Assembly (NCBI GenBank): GCA_000092065.1
Contig: CP000585.1
Length of the DNA: 64,000 nt
From: Ostreococcus lucimarinus
Taxonomy: Eukaryota
Direction: 5' to 3' (one strand)
Part shown: positions 4,329-35,670 of the stretch, one piece after another
Layout of the letters: each line of letters opens with the position of its first letter
How positions within the stretch are numbered: the stretch's first letter is position 1
Notes under the pieces: model-generated
What the model was told of the DNA's origin: nothing
Databases searched by the model: none
Seen by the model: only the letters and a program-made list of their open reading frames with translations
Made by a program: the position numbers and the translations under genes

Positions 4329-4369
4329 CGCGTTCTGCGGCGTATAGTGTTTGATGATTCGTCAACTGG

Positions 4370-6588
4370 CTAGAGTGGAAATTCGCGTCGAAGAGCGCCG
4401 ATGTCGTGCTTGTCGACGTGTTCTAAGAGATCTAATCGTCCGGTGCAACCAAGACTGATGCGGACGTAGCCCCAGGTCGGACTTTCGGGGTTGGGATTCA
4501 TCGATAACGCGCGAATGTAATAAGGCATCGACTCGGCGTACCGGCCTTGGTTGGCATAACTGATGCCCATGTTTGACCACGCGCGAACGTAGTTGGGTTT
4601 GATGGTCAGCGCGCGGCGATATGCCCCTACTGCGTCGGCACTCTCGGCGCCGTTCGCCTGCGTGGCGCCGATTTTGTTCCACAATGAATGGTCGTCGGGG
4701 CGCAAATTGGCGGCTCGTTGAAAGGCGTTGACTGCGTCTTCGTAATTCCTCGTCAAATGCGCCATGACACCGAGCACAGTTTGCACGTCAGCGTCGTTCG
4801 GTGCTTGTCGAGCGGCTTCTCTGAACATTGCCATGACGTTTTCGGGCGTGTGTGGCGCTTGTCCGGCGGCGATGTGTTTGAAGCGCTCTTGACTTCCGAG
4901 CCACTCACACGCGTGGCCGAGGGCTTCATCCTGGTCCAGCTCGTTCGCGTGGCTCACAGCGAGGGCGAGTAGAACATTTGGATTTTGCGGGTTCGCCTCG
5001 TACGCTTTTGACATCGCCGCGATGGCTTGCTGGTCATCGTCATTTTCCGCTTGGATGCGTCCCAGATGGTACCACGCTTCGCTGTTGCTCTGATCTTGAC
5101 GCACCCACGCCTCAGCGGCGAGGGCAGCTTCGGCGAGTACGCCCGTCTTTGCCAATTCCATCGTTTTCTCTTGCAAACCACTTTGACCGAGGTATGGGTT
5201 CGGGTCGGTGAATTTGTAGTTGCTCCGTTCTGAAAGCGGATTTTGTTGCATTTCGTCCCAAACGTTTTGCATCCATTCTGGGTTGTTGCGCTGCATATCT
5301 TCAAACTCGCTCGCCCACTCGCGCGGTACGTTCTTGAACTCTTCTGCCCAATCGTCGACGTTTGACTGCCTTTGCGATTCCATCTCGCGCTGCGAGAATT
5401 GCTGCGCCCACGCTTGGCTCGTCGGATTTTGACGCTGCATCTGCGCTGTAAACTGGTCCGCCCATTGAGGTTGCGGTTGCTGTGTTTGCTCGATGAACTC
5501 GGCCGCCCATCGCTCACCTTGGTCCACATGCCGCGCCTGAGGTGCCGCGTTTACCTCCTGCAAACCGTCTTCTCTCACGACGACTTGCCCGCTACCAAGT
5601 TTGGACATGAGTTGCGCGAATTTAGAATTCGCAAACTTTGGATCGGCGTTCAACGTCGCCGCAAGCTCACTACTTTGTTTCGCAGTTTGTGCCGCAACGT
5701 CAGTAAGCGGTGCTTGCACATCACTGGCGTGTTGTTGTGAAAACTCGTCCGCCCATCTGTTTTGCGCCGCGCCAAACTCCTCGCCCCAGCGCGTGCCTTG
5801 ATTTGATCTGTACTCTTGCGCCCACGCATCGGCGCGCGGTGGCGCGTGCATCGTGTGTGGCGGCGGCGGGTGGTTGTGAAACTCGTTTGCCCACTGCGCG
5901 TGCCTTGAAGTCTCAACATTCGCGAATTCTTCCGCCCAGGAACTCGGCGACGCCTGCGCGTGAAGTGGTTGCTGAAATCCGCGCGCCCAGCGGTCGCCGC
6001 GCTGCATCTCGCGAAGCATCGCCGCATTATGCGCCATCTGCGCTCGGGCGCTCATCTCAGCGTCATCCATGCGCATGCGCTCGAAGCCGTCTTCCATCTC
6101 CCCCTGCGACTGCAAATGTCTCGCCATCACAGCGCTCCTATTTCGAGCGAACGACTTCTCCAGCGCCGACGCCCCGCGCGCGTCCAACCTCGCATCCGGC
6201 ACCATCTGCACCGGTGCCGCCGCATATCGACCACTCGCACGCATCGTTCCTTCACGCACGTCTTCCACACCGTCCAACAGCCCCTCTCTCGCTAAATGTA
6301 ACCCATTCGCCGCGTTCGCCGCGCCTCGCGCGAGTTGGTCTGCGCGCCGAGTCCAACCGTCAGTCACGTCGTCTCGCGCGTCGTCTCGCGCGTCGCGTCG
6401 AGCGTCCGCGCGCACGAACCTCGTTCGCTCGCGCGCTGTATCTGTTGTTCGCGCGCGCGCGTGCCTCGATCGCCGAGTAAGACGTCGGCGACGCGCGCGA
6501 TTGGATTCGCGGCGCTCGACGGACCGGCGCCGTCGCTGGGTTCGCACGACGCGCCGCCGGTCGCGAGATCGCGCATGAACCTCGACAT
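4370..6588 (-). CDS. PEX5: peroxisomal targeting signal 1 receptor PEX5 (2 exons: 6588..6420 and 6339..4370)
   Basis: C-terminal TPR domain matches PEX5 ('LWNKIGATQANGAESADAVGAYRRALTIKPNYVRAWSNMGISYANQG'). The N-half carries at least 10 WxxxF/Y pentapeptides (WAEEF, WANEF, WAQEY, WADEF, WADQF, WAQQF, WASEF...). The conserved PEX5 N-terminus 'MSRFMRDLATGG..SSAANPIARVADVLLG' lies in a separate upstream ORF (ATG 6588). It is joined in phase by an 80-nt intron (G|GTTCGT..CTGAC..CAG|AC), and the split codon G+AC gives Asp. Confidence 0.8.
6340..6419 (-). other. predicted spliceosomal intron of PEX5 (80 nt)
   Basis: On the minus strand: donor GTTCGT at 6419-6414, branch CTGAC at 6363-6359 (A is 19 nt upstream of the acceptor), acceptor CAG at 6342-6340. 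Splicing restores frame between the exon with the conserved N-terminus and the TPR/WxxxF body. Confidence 0.55.
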
Positions 6589-6704
6589 CGCGCCGCGGGT
6601 TCGAGCGTGCGGTCGGCGCGGTCGCGCGGGTCGAGTTGTAACGTAGGCGTCTGCGTTGGGTTGCGTCACGTCGCGTTTGGTATTGCAATTGACGGCGCAA
6701 GGAA

Positions 6705-8282
6705 TCACGTGAGCACGAGGGCGATCTCGCTAGGTTCTAAATCTTCCAATATCCGCCAGTTGTAGAGGTAATAGTGCAAATTCCCGTCGCCGATGCCGAA
6801 ATTGAGCGCGCTCAGGAAGGATTCGTTTTCCATCAAATCGAGCGCGTTGAAGACGTCGAATGCGTTGTTTCGCGCCAAAATGAGGGCGTCTTCCATGAGC
6901 TTCACGAGCGGCATGGACGTCGCGACGTTGTAATACGAGTACGCCGCCTTCAGAGTTTTGTGCTTGGTTTTGCTGTGAATGATTTGCGACGGTAAGTTGT
7001 AAAAGCTGACGAAGTCGGTGATCTTGTTCGTCTTCTCGTCCTCGACGACGTATGAAAACACGACGTCCTCGCGCGGCAACAACCAGTGCCGAACTTCGGC
7101 CTCATTCATTATGGGCGCCACGGCGAATCTAGTCAAATATTTGCTCAACAACGCCGTCACGCGTGGAACGTCGGCCTCGGTCATGTGACGCAACCCTTCC
7201 GATTTTGGCTTCGCGGCAAGCTTGAACATCTGCACCGCGCGTGACATCGAGGCGTCGCGACCCAGGCGCGTGAATCCGATGTCGACGAGCTTTTTAATAT
7301 CCAAACTCCGATGCCAATAACGCGCTTTCGATATCGGCTTCGGCAACAGCACTCCCGCGGTGTACGTCGCTTGCCACACATCTTTCGCGTTGACCCGTCG
7401 CGTAATCTCCTTGATGAGCGTCGGCGCGATGCGCTTCGAGCGCAACTTTTTATGAATGCACAAGAAATTGATCTCCGCCAAGTCGATTTCTTTCCCCTTC
7501 ACCCTGAGTTTCGCCGGCACGCCCGTGATGAACGCCACGAGCGTCTGCGTCACCTTCAACCGCACTCCAACGTGCCAATCACCGTGATACTCCGGCGGTC
7601 GCAGCGCCCACTTTAAAAACTCTTGCGAGTATTGAAATCGAAACATCGCGTCGTCGTCCTCCACGTAGTTGTTCGTCAACAGCTCGTACACCTCCTCCTG
7701 CGTCCTCGAGTCCGTCATATCGCACGAGCACCACTCGTACCCCGGCGGCAGCGCGCCTCCGCTCTCGCTCGTCTCACTCGCGAGTTTCGGCGGGTCGATC
7801 GGTCCTTCCCGCAGCTCCGCGCCGCGCGACGTGTCCTCGCCGAATTGTCGCACGGGTTGCGTCTCCCAGAATTCGTGCGACGGCATTCGCGACGTCCGCT
7901 TCCCTTCGCGTTCGGCGAGGTGATGCTTCACGAGCGCGTCGACCACGCTCGACACCGTCGGCGCGTCGCCGTCGCGCGCGCGATCGACATCGCCTTCGAC
8001 ATCTCGTCCGCGCACCGCGTCGTTTCGCGCGTCGCGCGCGTCCGACGCGTCGGCGCCGACGACGCGCGCGTTCGCGTCGGCGCTCGCGGCGCGCGGCGCC
8101 GCGTCGGCGTCGGCGTCGGCGCGCATGTCGCGTCCAGCGCGTCGGAGTGCGGGCCGACGCCGTTCATCGGCAGAGCGCGACGCGTCGGCGAGCGCGCGAG
8201 ACACCGAGTCGGCGCGCGAGCGCGCGCGAGCGATCGACGCGTCGACGCTCAGACGCATAGACGCCCGGACGCGTCGAGACAT
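6705..8282 (-). CDS. NMT: glycylpeptide N-tetradecanoyltransferase (N-myristoyltransferase)
   Basis: 'FWETQPV..FGE', 'FRFQYSQEFLKWAL', 'EINFLCIHKKLRSKRIAPTLIKEITRR' and the C-terminal 'GDGNLHYYLYNWR' are canonical NMT blocks. There is a long basic/Ala-rich N-terminal extension; an alternative ATG lies at 7886. Confidence 0.85.
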   Translation of the reverse strand: MSRRVRASMRLSVDASIARARSRADSVSRALADASRSADERRRPALRRAGRDMRADADADAAPRAASADANARVVGADASDARDARNDAVRGRDVEGDVDRARDGDAPTVSSVVDALVKHHLAEREGKRTSRMPSHEFWETQPVRQFGEDTSRGAELREGPIDPPKLASETSESGGALPPGYEWCSCDMTDSRTQEEVYELLTNNYVEDDDAMFRFQYSQEFLKWALRPPEYHGDWHVGVRLKVTQTLVAFITGVPAKLRVKGKEIDLAEINFLCIHKKLRSKRIAPTLIKEITRRVNAKDVWQATYTAGVLLPKPISKARYWHRSLDIKKLVDIGFTRLGRDASMSRAVQMFKLAAKPKSEGLRHMTEADVPRVTALLSKYLTRFAVAPIMNEAEVRHWLLPREDVVFSYVVEDEKTNKITDFVSFYNLPSQIIHSKTKHKTLKAAYSYYNVATSMPLVKLMEDALILARNNAFDVFNALDLMENESFLSALNFGIGDGNLHYYLYNWRILEDLEPSEIALVLT

Positions 8283-15334: not shown

Positions 15335-15752
15335 AACCTACGTTCCGTCGCGTCGCGTCCATCGTCAGTCGCGCGTTCCGATCGTCGATCGATTTTTCAT
15401 TCACCGCGCGCGCGTCGTCTCGTCCCCGCGCGTCGTTCGCGCGCGCGTCCGACGCCGTCCGCGTCGCGCCCGCGAGAGGTTTTCGCCGTCGCGTCGATCG
15501 CGTCGCGCGCGCGCCGCGCGACGTCGATCGCGCCCGCGGCGCGCGCGCGATCGATGTCGAGCGACGCGTTCGCGCCGTCGCGCGCGTCGCGCGTCGCGCA
15601 CCTTCTCTTTCTTCGCCGCCATCGTCGCGCGTCGTGTGGCGTCGACCGCGGACCTTTCGCGACGGCGGGGTCGACCGACCGCGGTCCGCGGGGCGATGGC
15701 GCGGTTTTAGGGCGGGCCGTACTGTTTGCGCATACGATTGGAATGTGATGCT

Positions 15753-16884: not shown

Positions 16885-17531
16885 ATGGCGGACACGAACC
16901 GAATCATGAAAGAGCTGCGCGAGATCGCGAGCGACGTCGCGTCGCAGGTCAAGGTGACGCAGCACGGGGACAGTTTGGTGCACATGAAGGGCACCATCGC
17001 GGGTGCGTGCGCGCGATCGCGACGCGGCGAAACGCGTCGCGAGAGACTGACGGGCGACGGCCGCGCGCAGGACCGAGCGAGACGGTGTACGAGGGCGGGA
17101 CGTTTCACATCGACATACAGATCGGGGCGTCGTATCCGTTCGAACCGCCGAAGATGAAGTTTCTCACCAAGGTGTGGCATCCAAACGTGTCGAGCCAGAC
17201 GGGGGCGATTTGCCTGGACGTGCTGAAGGATCAGTGGTCGCCGGCGTTGACGCTGAAGACGGCGCTGTTGTCGTGTCAGGCGCTGCTGGCGGCGCCGGAA
17301 CCGGACGATCCGCAGGACGCGCAGGTGGCGCAGATGTACACGGAACGACGAGGGGAGTTCGACGAGACGGCGAGGACGTGGACGAAGAAGTACGCCACGG
17401 AGGATCAGAAGGATCCGGTCGTCGGGGAGTTGATGGAGATGGGGTTCAGTGAGGGTGCGGTATTGAAAGCGCTGACGAAGTGCGGTGGGAATAAGGATCG
17501 CGCGGTCGAGGAGCTGTTGGGGGGGGCTTGA
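16885..17531 (+). CDS. UBE2K: ubiquitin-conjugating enzyme E2 K (Ubc1-type, C-terminal UBA); 2 exons 16885..17002 and 17071..17531
   Basis: Exon 1 'MADTNRIMKELREIASDVASQVKVTQHGDSLVHMKGTIA' is the UBC N-terminus. Exon 2 '(G)PSETVYEGGTFHIDIQIGASYPFEPPKMKFLTKVWHPNVSSQTGAICLDVL..' plus the UBA tail 'LMEMGFSEGAVLKALTKCGGNKDRAVEELL' are colinear with E2-25K. The two frames are joined by a 68-nt GT..AG intron, with the split codon G+GA giving Gly. Confidence 0.8.
17003..17070 (+). other. spliceosomal intron of UBE2K-like gene (68 nt)
   Basis: GTGCGT donor at 17003, CTGAC branch at 17046-17050, CAG acceptor ending at 17070. Removing it restores the conserved ..TIAG|PxxTxYEGG.. junction. Confidence 0.7.
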
Positions 17532-25760: not shown

Positions 25761-27206
25761 ATGGGCGGCCGCCGCGCGCACCACGAAAACGGCGATCACC
25801 CCATGTGTTCGTTCGCGGCGTGCGTGCCGCCCAAGGAGTGGAGCGCCGAGCGCGTGAGGTGCGTCGCGACGCGCGCGATCGTCGCGAGATAACGACCTCG
25901 AGATATCGCTTGAGTTTCGTTCGAAACGCGCTCGCGCGACGCGCGCGCGCGACGCGGGCGGGCGACGAGGGATGCGACCGAAGCGAACGCGCGAACGCGA
26001 CTGACGAACGACGCGCGCGCGACGCACGAACGCAGGACGTGCGTGGATGAGTGCTTTGAAAAATTGCCGAAGACGTACTACAAGGTGGAACGACGCGAGT
26101 GCGGCGGATTGGCGCGGTCGATGACGCACAAGGTGAAGTTTGCGAGCGGTAACTCGTATGAGCTGGCGCTGGTGAGCGATACGCTCGGGGCGGAGGAGGT
26201 TGGGAAGAAGTTTGAGGCGATTCGCGAGGAGCACGCGGACCTGCGCGAACGGTCGCTGGCGTTGAAGGCGTATTTGAAAGAGTTGAGCGGCAAGCATAAA
26301 TTTTCGTTCGTCGTGATCGACGATACGACGAAACGTGTTTTTGCCGCGGCGACGCAGTTCAGCGCGCCGTTGTCGTTCGGCCATTCGAAGGATGGGATGC
26401 TCGTTTTGTTTTGCGGCGCGGGGGGGAAGTCGGTGGCGACGCACTGGCCGCTCAACGAGCAAGAGGTGACCCAATGCGCGCAGCACGGCGAGGCGGCGCG
26501 ACGTCGAAGCATTGATGTGAGAGATCGTCCACCCGCGAACGCGGCCGGCGGCAGTAGGCGAAGCGTGGACGGCGGTAGGCGAAGCGTGGACGGCGGCAGG
26601 CGAAGCGTGGACGGCGGTCGCCGCAGCATCGACGAAAAAGCAGTCTTCACGTCTGAAGTCGGCTGGGTCGATCCGGGCGCCACCGTGCCAGTGGATTTCA
26701 CTCACAACAGGATCGTGCTCACGCATCTCCCAGTCGGGCGCTTCGTGTACGGGCACGGGTACCTACAGCCGTACGAGTTCACCTCGTTTTGGAGCAGCGC
26801 CCAGAGCAACCGCGCCGGCGTGCCCGAGCGGGCGTTCCACAGCGGCAATGACTGGTCAAAGGAGTCGCCCAACAGCAGCCGAAGAAGTAGTTTCGACGTC
26901 AACAGCGCCGACGGCGCGCCTCGACGTTCCAGCATCGACGAACGTCATCGCAAATGGGAAAGCACCAATTCAAAGTGCGACACCGAGGCGAGTTGGAAAA
27001 AACCCGCCGCAGAAGCGAAGCGCCCGCTCCCACCGCGTTCGCCGATAAAAAGCCAAGAACCCATCGTGCCTTCGCTCGAGAAATTATCCGTCAAGGACGG
27101 CGAGAAGAAAAAGAGCTCGCTCGGGTCAAAAATCCGTCGAAACCTGTCTGTCGAAAGTCTCAAAAAAGCCTTCGGCGTCGCGGGCAAGAAATCCGAAGAC
27201 GCGTGA
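25761..27206 (+). CDS. hypothetical protein with (GGRRSVD)x4 repeat; predicted 2 exons 25761..25858 and 26036..27206
   Basis: The track ORF begins at a GTG (26043), not an ATG. Upstream is an ATG exon 'MGGRRAHHENGDHPMCSFAACVPPKEWSAERV' ending AG|GTGCGT, then a 177-nt intron with CTGAC 30 nt before CAG|G. This joins in phase to '..RTCVDECFEKLPKTYYKVERRECGG..'. No family recognised. Confidence 0.4.
25859..26035 (+). other. predicted intron (177 nt) of gene 25761..27206
   Basis: GTGCGT donor at 25859, CTGAC at 26001-26005, CAG acceptor ending at 26035. It is frame-preserving, with the split codon AG+G giving Arg. Confidence 0.4.
26551..26634 (+). repeat. 21-bp x4 in-frame tandem repeat encoding G(G/S)RRSVD
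   Basis: ggc(agt/ggt/ggc)aggcgaagcgtggac x3, plus a diverged fourth unit (..cgccgcagcatcgac). Confidence 0.9.
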
Positions 27207-32967: not shown

Positions 32968-35175
32968 CTAATGTTCTCTCCATGTGGCGTCCTCCACCGG
33001 CGGAAGAACCGTTGATGTTGGCAGCAAGCAAGAGTCGAGCACAGAAGGCTGCCCGTTTTGCGCGCGGTCAATCGAAGCTTCTTCCGGAAACGACACCATT
33101 TGCGTGACTGTCGCGGCAGGACGCTGATACATTTGAATCATATCAATCGTTGGTGTCCCAGCTTTTATGGCGTCGCCCGAAACATCGTCACGGGTCGGGC
33201 TGTTCCTAGCCGCGGTGTCGACATCGTGCGTATCTGCTTGATCCTCGTAGAAGTGTTGCAACACGGTTTGGCTCGCGCTGAGCGCCTCAACGAGCGAGTC
33301 TCCGTCTCGTATATCGCTAACAAACGCCGGTTGAAACATCGATCCGCTCCCATGCGCTGGTTGACGCAAGATGGCGTTACCATTGCCACCTCGATGACGT
33401 ACGCCGGCTTTCTCGGGAGACGTCGACAGATCCTTCAGGCGAGTTGATCTTTTCAGAACACTCGCACTCAAGTCAGCAGATCGGCCGAGCGCACTCTCGT
33501 TGGCGTTAGTAAATCCATTGAGTGAGTTCAACATGTCGCGTCCGCTTGCGTCCGGTTCCCACGCAGGATAAGTCGCCTGAAACGTCAAGAAGCTCTTCTC
33601 CATTTTCCCTTGGCGGCTGCGCTGCTCCTTGCTCGCGTGACTTGGCGCGCCGTAGTGCTTATTCCCATGGCGATTGAAATCAAACGCACTCAAAGAGCAC
33701 ATGTCCCCGACCCCTGATTTGTTCACCGTGAACTGTCGGACGAACTGAATGATGTCGTCCGCAGAATCGCACAAGGGAAACCAAAGCACGAAGGGCGCCG
33801 CGAAGACGGATGCAATCTCTTCCAGAAACATCACAGCCTTGAGCGAAAAGAAAGAGTTGAACTCGTGTTGAACTTCTTCCTTGTGTGCGGCATCCCGCCA
33901 GTGCTTGGGCAAGTAATGAGTATGCGCGACAATCTTTGACATGATGACGTTGGGTTCGAACACGGCGTTTTCCGTCGCCATCAACGCCCGAGAGGACGCG
34001 AGAATGGTACCGAGAACCGCCGTAATCCAAAGTAAATCGCGATCGCCGACGTAAGCCTGCAACAATCGATCGTCCACGATCGCACAAAACAATGCGCATG
34101 CCGCGAACGCGCCGACGACGTATGACACAAACTTTGCCAAAATGTTTACCACCGGCGACGGAAACTGCGCGACGTACTTCTTCGCGTGCGGGTACGCTGC
34201 GGCTAATCTTTGCTGCGTAAAGTGCGGAAGCTCGTTGAACTCGCGCATGCGCCAGTATGCGTAAGAATTCCAGTCTCGCGCTCCGACCGCGGACGGGGTG
34301 TTGTAAAACTTTTCAGCGTACGACAACACAAAGTACATGGAGAGGAAAATCGCGACGAATGGCGAAAGAATGGCGTTGATGATGGCGAGGCATCGAAAAC
34401 GATGACGCAACGCAGAAACGTCGTAAAATGACGGCACAATCGTGAAGTTGTCATCGAACATGCCGTGGAAAACCGCTAGATCGATATTCCACTCGATGAC
34501 TTTCGTGAACCAGCGATGGTTTTGCAATCCTGGAGCGTCGAGCGAAAGCTTGAGCACGTCTCTGTTGACCATACCGGTGAGATAATTCTCCTTTCGCAAA
34601 ATCCGGGCGACGATGTCGTGCTCGTTCAAATCTCGCGCGATGCTCAACCTCGTCGTCGCTTGCAAATGTACCACGCGCTGTAGCACCTCTGGCCACGTGA
34701 TTGTGTACAAATCCCTATCGCTCAGCGCCAGCTTTTGGTTGCAAAATTTCCGCATCGTCGCCAACGGCGCGGCGTCGTGTGCCAACCGCGTCGCGCTCCA
34801 CACCCAATACGCCGAGAACAACAGCAAATACATCGTCACCACGGCGTTTCGCACGAAACCACCGTACTGATACGGCTCGCTAAACACCGCATCCCGCAAA
34901 ATATCGCACTGCTCCGCCTCGGACGCGCACTGGTTTCGCAAATAATCGTAATCCACGTACAGCAACAGCAACCCACTCAACCAAATCGTAAATCCGAGCG
35001 TGCACAAGTTCACCACCCTCGACGTCAGCGCGCATCGGTACCCTTTCGCGTTAAAGTACGCGTACAATCGCGCGAATTTCCCATCCAGGTCCTCGCCGAC
35101 GCCCGAAAACAGTCGCGCGTCGTCGCCGTCCCGCTCGCGCGCCTCGTCCTCGCGCCCGGCTTCCGCCTGCAGCAA
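32968..35175 (-). CDS. ATG9: autophagy-related protein 9 (ATG9)-like multi-pass membrane protein
   Basis: 735 aa. The N-terminus 'FARLYAYFNAKGYRCALTSRVVNLCTLGFTIWLSG' and blocks 'ILRKENYLTGMVNRDVLKLSL' and 'FHGMFDDNFTIVPSF' follow the ATG9 core pattern. The C-terminal third is disordered. Confidence 0.6.
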   Translation of the reverse strand: MLQAEAGREDEARERDGDDARLFSGVGEDLDGKFARLYAYFNAKGYRCALTSRVVNLCTLGFTIWLSGLLLLYVDYDYLRNQCASEAEQCDILRDAVFSEPYQYGGFVRNAVVTMYLLLFSAYWVWSATRLAHDAAPLATMRKFCNQKLALSDRDLYTITWPEVLQRVVHLQATTRLSIARDLNEHDIVARILRKENYLTGMVNRDVLKLSLDAPGLQNHRWFTKVIEWNIDLAVFHGMFDDNFTIVPSFYDVSALRHRFRCLAIINAILSPFVAIFLSMYFVLSYAEKFYNTPSAVGARDWNSYAYWRMREFNELPHFTQQRLAAAYPHAKKYVAQFPSPVVNILAKFVSYVVGAFAACALFCAIVDDRLLQAYVGDRDLLWITAVLGTILASSRALMATENAVFEPNVIMSKIVAHTHYLPKHWRDAAHKEEVQHEFNSFFSLKAVMFLEEIASVFAAPFVLWFPLCDSADDIIQFVRQFTVNKSGVGDMCSLSAFDFNRHGNKHYGAPSHASKEQRSRQGKMEKSFLTFQATYPAWEPDASGRDMLNSLNGFTNANESALGRSADLSASVLKRSTRLKDLSTSPEKAGVRHRGGNGNAILRQPAHGSGSMFQPAFVSDIRDGDSLVEALSASQTVLQHFYEDQADTHDVDTAARNSPTRDDVSGDAIKAGTPTIDMIQMYQRPAATVTQMVSFPEEASIDRAQNGQPSVLDSCLLPTSTVLPPVEDATWREH

Positions 35176-35670
35176 TCCCTCGTGTTCGTGCGCGCTGCGA
35201 CGATGCGTTTCCGTCAGTCATTCCGCTCGACGCGCGCCTCGCGCGTCGCGCGCCTCGCGCGCGTCGCGCGCGTCGTCGTCGTCGTCGTCGCTCGCGCATC
35301 GTGCGCGTCGTCGACCGCGCACCTCTCCAACGCGTCGTACGCCTCGTCCTCGTCCTCGTCCGCGTCCGCGCGCGACGCGAATCGCATCGCTCGTCCGCTC
35401 TTCGTCGCGCACCACCGCGCGGCGCGCGCGCGCGCGTGTGCGGTCGACGATTTCGTCGCAGGTGGCGACGGTGACAGTTTAAAAATCCGACGCCGCGACG
35501 CGACGCGACGACGACGCGAGAGACTCCGAGCGAGACGCGGCGCGCGTTCGAACGCTCGCGGCGCGATCGCGTCGAAAATAAGCGCGACGGCGCGCGCGAC
35601 GATGAAATGCGCGTGAATACGAATTGAAACGCGCGACGTTCGTCGGCGGCGCGCTCGGACGCGTCTCGCG

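Follow-up and report, generated by a model that had tools for sequence, protein, structure and literature searches.

The question raised by this locus is where the gene for the peroxisomal import receptor PEX5 begins. In the window (the whole stretch of 64,000 nt of Ostreococcus lucimarinus DNA that was analysed), the recognizable parts of the receptor are found on the minus strand in two different reading frames. A 776-aa ORF (4370..6700, minus strand) encodes both the WxxxF/Y motifs and the TPR repeats; over the first ~120 residues it is an Arg-rich low-complexity read-through, and its earliest in-frame ATG is found at 6244. The other frame contains a 114-aa ORF (6364..6708, minus strand, listed start GTG), which includes an ATG at 6588 that opens the sequence MSRFMRDLATGGASCEPSDGAGPSSAANPIARVADVLLGDRGTRAREQQIQRASER. 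If the latter frame is read from ATG 6588 without splicing, a stop codon is encountered within the presumed intron (...TRETT*).

A two-exon model of the PEX5 gene

According to our analysis, the region 6588..4370 (minus strand) is very likely to be a two-exon gene for PEX5, the PTS1 import receptor, whose transcript would be spliced to encode 712 aa. The proposed features of PEX5 in O. lucimarinus are as follows:

6420..6588, minus strand: PEX5 exon 1, 169 nt (56 codons and 1 base), begins at ATG 6588
6340..6419, minus strand: PEX5 intron, 80 nt, phase 1, GTTCGTG ... GACTGACG ... CAG
6367..6390, minus strand: 12-nt unit CGCGAGACGACG in two tandem copies within the intron, present also in the 95%-identical strain L011
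6358..6365, minus strand: branch-point motif GACTGACG, its branch A separated from exon 2 by 20 nt
4370..6339, minus strand: PEX5 exon 2, 1970 nt including the stop codon, encodes the WxxxF/Y motifs and the TPR domain
6245..6339, minus strand: 5' segment of exon 2 preceding the earliest in-frame ATG (6244), encodes the invariant LA.EGL block

The final base of exon 1 is the G at 6420, the donor GTTCGT occupies 6419..6414, and the acceptor CAG is located at 6342..6340, its AG being the sole AG downstream of the branch site. Joining 6420 to 6339 combines G with AC to a codon for Asp (GAC) in phase 1 and opens a CDS of 2139 nt (712 aa). The protein encoded by this CDS is identical in all 712 residues to XP_001418009.1 / ABO96302.1 / UniRef100_A4RXJ8 (exact-sequence look-up and string comparison). 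Hence, the two-exon model of PEX5 is already public in GenBank/RefSeq and is not new. XP_001418009.1, annotated as the peroxisomal targeting signal 1 receptor of O. lucimarinus CCE9901, represents the same gene with no difference at the protein level, and the same exon junction is implied by this identity rather than by the deposited exon coordinates; as far as can be told, the deposited gene model is itself a prediction. The nearest named relatives of the spliced protein are PEX5 (peroxin-5) sequences of plants and green algae.

The original prediction, made from the letters of this DNA and a list of its ORFs, had placed the conserved PEX5 N-terminus in a separate upstream exon followed by an 80-nt intron, and every coordinate and motif that it gave turned out to be correct; the GTTCGT donor directly after exon 1, CTGAC 19 nt before exon 2, the CAG acceptor and the phase-1 join at Asp were all matched base for base. 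Its view of the gene as consisting of two exons agrees with the identity of the product to the deposited 712-aa protein, and the Arg-rich upstream part of the long ORF, which it dismissed, is indeed junk and has no in-frame ATG before 6244. The further assertion that the long ORF has no plausible start stands for the part upstream of 6244, where no ATG is present, and has to be qualified for 6244 itself, where an in-frame ATG is formally available.

The expression of the gene may be envisaged in three steps. An 80-nt spliceosomal intron (6419..6340) of the canonical U2 type would be removed, as judged from the sequence and from the established knowledge of splicing; the 169-nt first exon would thereby be spliced in phase 1 onto the 1970-nt body; and ATG 6588 would be used as the translation start, giving rise to the 712-aa receptor. 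Exon 1 would provide the N-terminal motif with Cys15, and the body would provide the WxxxF/Y motifs predicted to dock on PEX14 and PEX13, together with the putative PTS1-cargo-binding TPR domain. As to the start codon, no ATG was found in the 116-nt intergenic stretch upstream of 6588, i.e. after the stop codon of the preceding gene, so a scanning ribosome would meet 6588 first. The use of ATG 6244 (MRASGRY...) would cost 87 residues, conserved ones among them.

Comparison with orthologous loci

The window was compared with six orthologous loci identified in metagenome and SRA assemblies, whose PEX5 proteins exhibit about 63% to 95% identity to that of the window. The gene order NMT (N-myristoyltransferase), PEX5, Gpi16 is common to all 7 lineages including the window, in which the identity of both neighbours was confirmed by Pfam. 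An alignment with PEX5 orthologues from green algae had been suggested as a check of the predicted junction, and the six loci indeed revealed a phase-1 intron at the same codon; thus, the intron at the homologous codon and the exon-1 peptide are present in 7/7 lineages. Likewise, all seven segments exhibit a donor of the form GT(G/T/A)CG(T/C), an AG acceptor and, between them, ACTGA(C/T), whose branch A is followed by 16–31 nt. The lengths of the introns are:

window: 80 nt, remainder modulo 3 = 2
L011: 80 nt, remainder modulo 3 = 2
L001: 81 nt, remainder modulo 3 = 0
L009: 92 nt, remainder modulo 3 = 2
L006: 96 nt, remainder modulo 3 = 0
L004: 85 nt, remainder modulo 3 = 1
L007: 78 nt, remainder modulo 3 = 0

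In the frame of exon 1, a stop codon occurs in five of the seven segments, and all except that of L001 exhibit either a frame break or a stop; splicing yields a full-length PEX5 of about 701–721 aa in every one of the seven loci. Within the intron, alignment is restricted to the two termini and the branch motif. In exon 1 the third codon position is the most variable one (0.24, 0.17 and 0.40 differences per site between lineages for the three codon positions), and a coding-like distribution is also observed in the part of exon 2 upstream of ATG 6244 (0.40, 0.37 and 0.55). The LA.EGL block, encoded just past the acceptor and upstream of any in-frame ATG, is invariant across the lineages. As far as sequence comparison can tell, this pattern is that of a real, conserved spliceosomal intron; neither a sequencing error nor a separate upstream ORF would look like this.

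The latter reading deserves to be spelled out. It would dispense with the intron, start PEX5 at ATG 6244 and regard the upstream ORF of 56–81 aa as a separate small ORF, a uORF or non-coding DNA. An ATG does exist in frame at 6244, and truncated models of this kind are picked by many metagenome gene callers. With a start at 6244, however, the protein would lack the N-terminal cysteine motif, whose counterpart is found at the very beginning of PEX5 in plants and algae. It would also lack the invariant LA.EGL block (6339..6245), for which no separate start codon is available and which can therefore be translated only if joined to exon 1. Moreover, exon 1 exhibits coding-type substitutions across the 7 lineages, each of which has consensus splice signals at the homologous codon. 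We therefore regard a start at 6244 as a highly improbable alternative to the spliced model.

Even less credence, close to none, can be given to the explanation of the frame break by indels introduced by sequencing or assembly into a single-exon gene, or by a true frameshift in a decaying pseudogene. It could appeal to the lineage of L001–L003, in which the N-terminus and the body form one continuous ORF of 730 aa, but this ORF is explained by an 81-nt segment that is free of stops and carries GTGCGT...CTGAT...CAG. In the other lineages the lengths differ by non-multiples of three and stops are present. Outside this segment, the gene is intact and conserved. Furthermore, many independent assemblies contain the ORF with its start within the intron (the 665-aa form P0094 alone was found on 378 contigs), and the 95%-identical strain carries the same 80-nt segment.

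Two of the orthologous loci call for separate comments. In L001 (3173..3253; also in L002 and L003; 70% protein identity) the orthologous intron of 81 nt is in frame and stop-free, and ORF callers consequently report for this lineage a 730-aa PEX5 with 27 spurious residues; a retained intron, if it occurred there, would still leave a full-length product. In L011 (ENA ERZ10646634 contig_16020) a frameshift is found in the TPR region, in the C-terminal third of PEX5, and the corresponding protein P0004 ends with Arg-rich junk; this frameshift probably reflects an indel in the assembly and not a biological feature.

Among the Ostreococcus-like lineages examined, the intron is found at one codon in every case; in more distant prasinophyte-like homologues, the gene calls run through this region as uninterrupted ORFs. 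A search for spliced sequences was also carried out. Neither the 29-mer that spans the spliced junction nor the 26-mer shared with the 95%-identical strain was detected in the metagenome contigs by exact search, and this absence says little, since for this organism the collection apparently consists of genomic DNA. Profile searching with six spliced N-termini yielded nothing but exon-1 ORFs in unspliced form and fragments truncated at the 5' end, and the PEX5 gene is not mentioned in the supplementary files of the O. lucimarinus EST paper.

Splice signals of PEX5 and other introns in the window

The EST-confirmed introns of O. lucimarinus outside chromosome 2 are characterized by an atypical 5' splice site consensus, GTGCGTG (Irimia & Roy 2008, PMC2483917), and by a branch motif that comprises ACTGAC in 87% and the extended form GACTGACG in 66.5% of cases (PMC2483917). 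The PEX5 intron resembles these canonical introns in its exact GACTGACG branch motif, in its short length and in the use of the first AG after the branch as the acceptor; it differs from the consensus in the donor, GTTCGTG, which matches 6/7 positions and has T instead of G at +3. At the same place strain L011 has the donor GTGCGCG. On the basis of these signals, the predicted intron 6419..6340 fits the U2-type class of O. lucimarinus introns outside chromosome 2.

Taken by themselves, the motifs are weak evidence, and the signal of the intron comes from the context and from the comparison between lineages. The bare 8-mer GACTGACG is not enriched (6 occurrences in the window vs 4.1 expected), and a loose donor–branch–acceptor pattern is uninformative alone (21 matches vs 13 +/- 6 in Markov-simulated sequence). 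As regards context, 5/6 of the GACTGACG sites are located 19–31 nt before an AG, after a GTKCGY donor and a short first exon initiated by ATG, and the same fraction (5/6) lies in an intron configuration that restores an ORF.

Two alternative donors were considered for PEX5 and rejected. The second donor-like site, GTGCGCG at 6415, located 4 nt downstream of the main donor, would define a 76-nt intron, shift the frame and lead to an 86-aa product. The use of GTCCGT at 6524 would define a 185-nt intron of the same phase and delete the conserved NPI..LLGDRG block. Neither of them is conserved in the orthologues.

These sites are nevertheless the basis for a further reading, in which the intron is real and partly retained or alternatively spliced (with donor 6415 or 6524), so that an 81-aa peptide or unproductive transcripts tune PEX5. 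The near-consensus sequence of the former site and the phase of the latter speak in its favour, as does the existence of one lineage in which the intron is in frame and stop-free. On the other hand, the donor at 6419 is the only one conserved in position and phase across the lineages, and unusually strict splice signals have been reported for this genome (PMC2483917). Partial retention or alternative splicing thus seems to have a very small chance of being right, about as small as that of a start at 6244. The related idea that the 5' intron of PEX5 could act as a regulatory switch, with retention or donor 6415 giving rise to an 81- or 86-aa peptide with the Cys motif or to an unproductive transcript and thereby tuning the abundance of the receptor, may be a trifle less improbable, yet we would still call it very unlikely. 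If the switch were true, the lineage with the 81-nt stop-free intron would gain upon retention an isoform of the receptor with 27 extra residues.

The window provides a control for this splicing grammar. The gene for an E2 ubiquitin-conjugating enzyme with a C-terminal UBA domain exhibits GTGCGTG, a GACTGACG whose branch A is followed by 20 nt, and CAG, i.e. the same grammar as the PEX5 intron, and its spliced product reveals an unbroken match to Pfam UQ_con (positions 1–139 of 140). Because the E2 domain continues without interruption across the join, it supports the intron grammar from within the window. The introns observed in the window apart from that of PEX5 are:

17003..17070, plus strand: 68-nt phase-1 intron in the E2 gene (16885..17531)
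35322..35195, minus strand: apparent 128-nt phase-2 intron in the gene for autophagy protein 9, ATG9 (35387..32968)
25859..26035, plus strand: candidate 177-nt phase-2 5' intron, GTGCG(T/C) donor and GCGACTGACGA branch motif, in a gene for 422 aa with no Pfam match
15601..15338, minus strand: candidate 264-nt phase-0 5' intron after a first exon of 7 codons, GTGCG(T/C) and GCGACTGACGA, in a gene for 132 aa with no Pfam match

The candidate intron of ATG9 follows an acidic first exon of 65 nt and reads GTGCGCG ... TGACTGACG ... CAG. It appears to be an intron on the grounds of its motifs and of ORF continuity only, as the match to Pfam ATG9 begins at residue 56, past the junction. All five introns seen in the window, including that of PEX5, are preceded by a short first exon.

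The PEX5 protein and its fate in ORF-based catalogues

Exon 1 encodes the conserved N-terminal motif and the NPI..ADVLLGDRG block. The expectation that its peptide mirrors the N-terminus of PEX5 agrees with BLASTP searches, which aligned residues 5–39 to residues 3–35 of a plant PEX5 with 51% identity (E = 5e-6) and detected a more distant prasinophyte-like PEX5 N-terminus, the cysteine included (E = 5e-7). The first 100 residues contain a single Cys, Cys15, which does not vary among 6 lineages. Eleven WxxxF/Y motifs were found by a pattern search between residues 174 and 402. The C-terminal part matches the TPR families of Pfam, and phmmer searches against the PDB identified human PEX5 (1fch_A, E = 6.3e-44, query 400–708), trypanosome and other PEX5 chains (E about 1e-42 to 1e-44), as well as full-length receptor chains such as 8ggd_E, which match residues 292–711 of the query. 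The Pfam family PEX18_PEX21_C gave a weak match to residues 267–314 (E = 5.2e-4), with 20.4 bits, short of the curated 25-bit cut-off. This match bears on a PEX7-binding box, a feature of plant PEX5 and mammalian PEX5L, the PTS2 co-receptors.

The protein shares with PEX5 of land plants and animals the cysteine-containing motif M(R/K)(D/E)L..G...C...NP(L/I)...L.G, several WxxxF/Y motifs and the C-terminal TPR domain. It differs from them in the linker that connects the Cys motif to the first WxxxF/Y, and the overall identity to plant PEX5 (e.g. P0019) is only about 35–38%. Mono-ubiquitination of the PEX5 cysteine serves the recycling of the receptor. The N-terminal cysteine of PEX5 has been described as the site of this modification, and the WxxxF/Y motifs as binding PEX14 and PEX13 (PMC8172628). 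By analogy to this literature, roles in ubiquitination and in docking can be predicted for Cys15 and for the WxxxF/Y motifs, respectively, and homology suggests that O. lucimarinus would use the parts of its receptor as they are used in known PEX5 proteins.

ORF-based annotation had been expected either to truncate this gene or to furnish it with a junk N-terminus, and every failure of these kinds was encountered among the metagenome gene calls:

P0001 (665 aa): begins within the intron, at a GTG (VTDGWTRRA...)
P0005: likewise begins within the intron, at an ATG
P0006, P0007, P0011 and P0012: truncated, starting at downstream methionines
P0010 (758 aa): junk N-terminal extension
P0002 and P0003: in-frame read-through of the intron, with 27 residues added
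P0130–P0138: exon 1 called alone as orphan ORFs of 78–114 aa

The same errors have propagated to clustered public proteins. The representative of the O. lucimarinus PEX5 cluster (147 members) is the erroneous 665-aa form with its start within the intron, and the correct 712-aa protein is only 1 among the 15 members listed; exon 1 additionally forms several separate orphan clusters of 78–114 aa without Pfam annotation. Thus, prokaryote-style ORF calling on metagenome contigs of picoeukaryotes consistently breaks PEX5 and offers a clear example of how protein catalogues become corrupted. Surveys of marine algae that rely on such data to score the PEX5 cysteine motif would erroneously report its absence. 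The biological import is slight: the PEX5 of O. lucimarinus is complete and includes the recycling cysteine, as the public annotation already shows.

Finally, the PEX5 gene is closely flanked on both sides. The stop codon of NMT is separated from the PEX5 ATG by 116 nt (6589..6704), and the PEX5 stop from the ATG of the downstream gene Gpi16 (GPI transamidase) by 41 nt (4329..4369). As NMT, PEX5 and Gpi16 are packed so tightly on the same strand, their UTRs and promoters must overlap the neighbouring genes.
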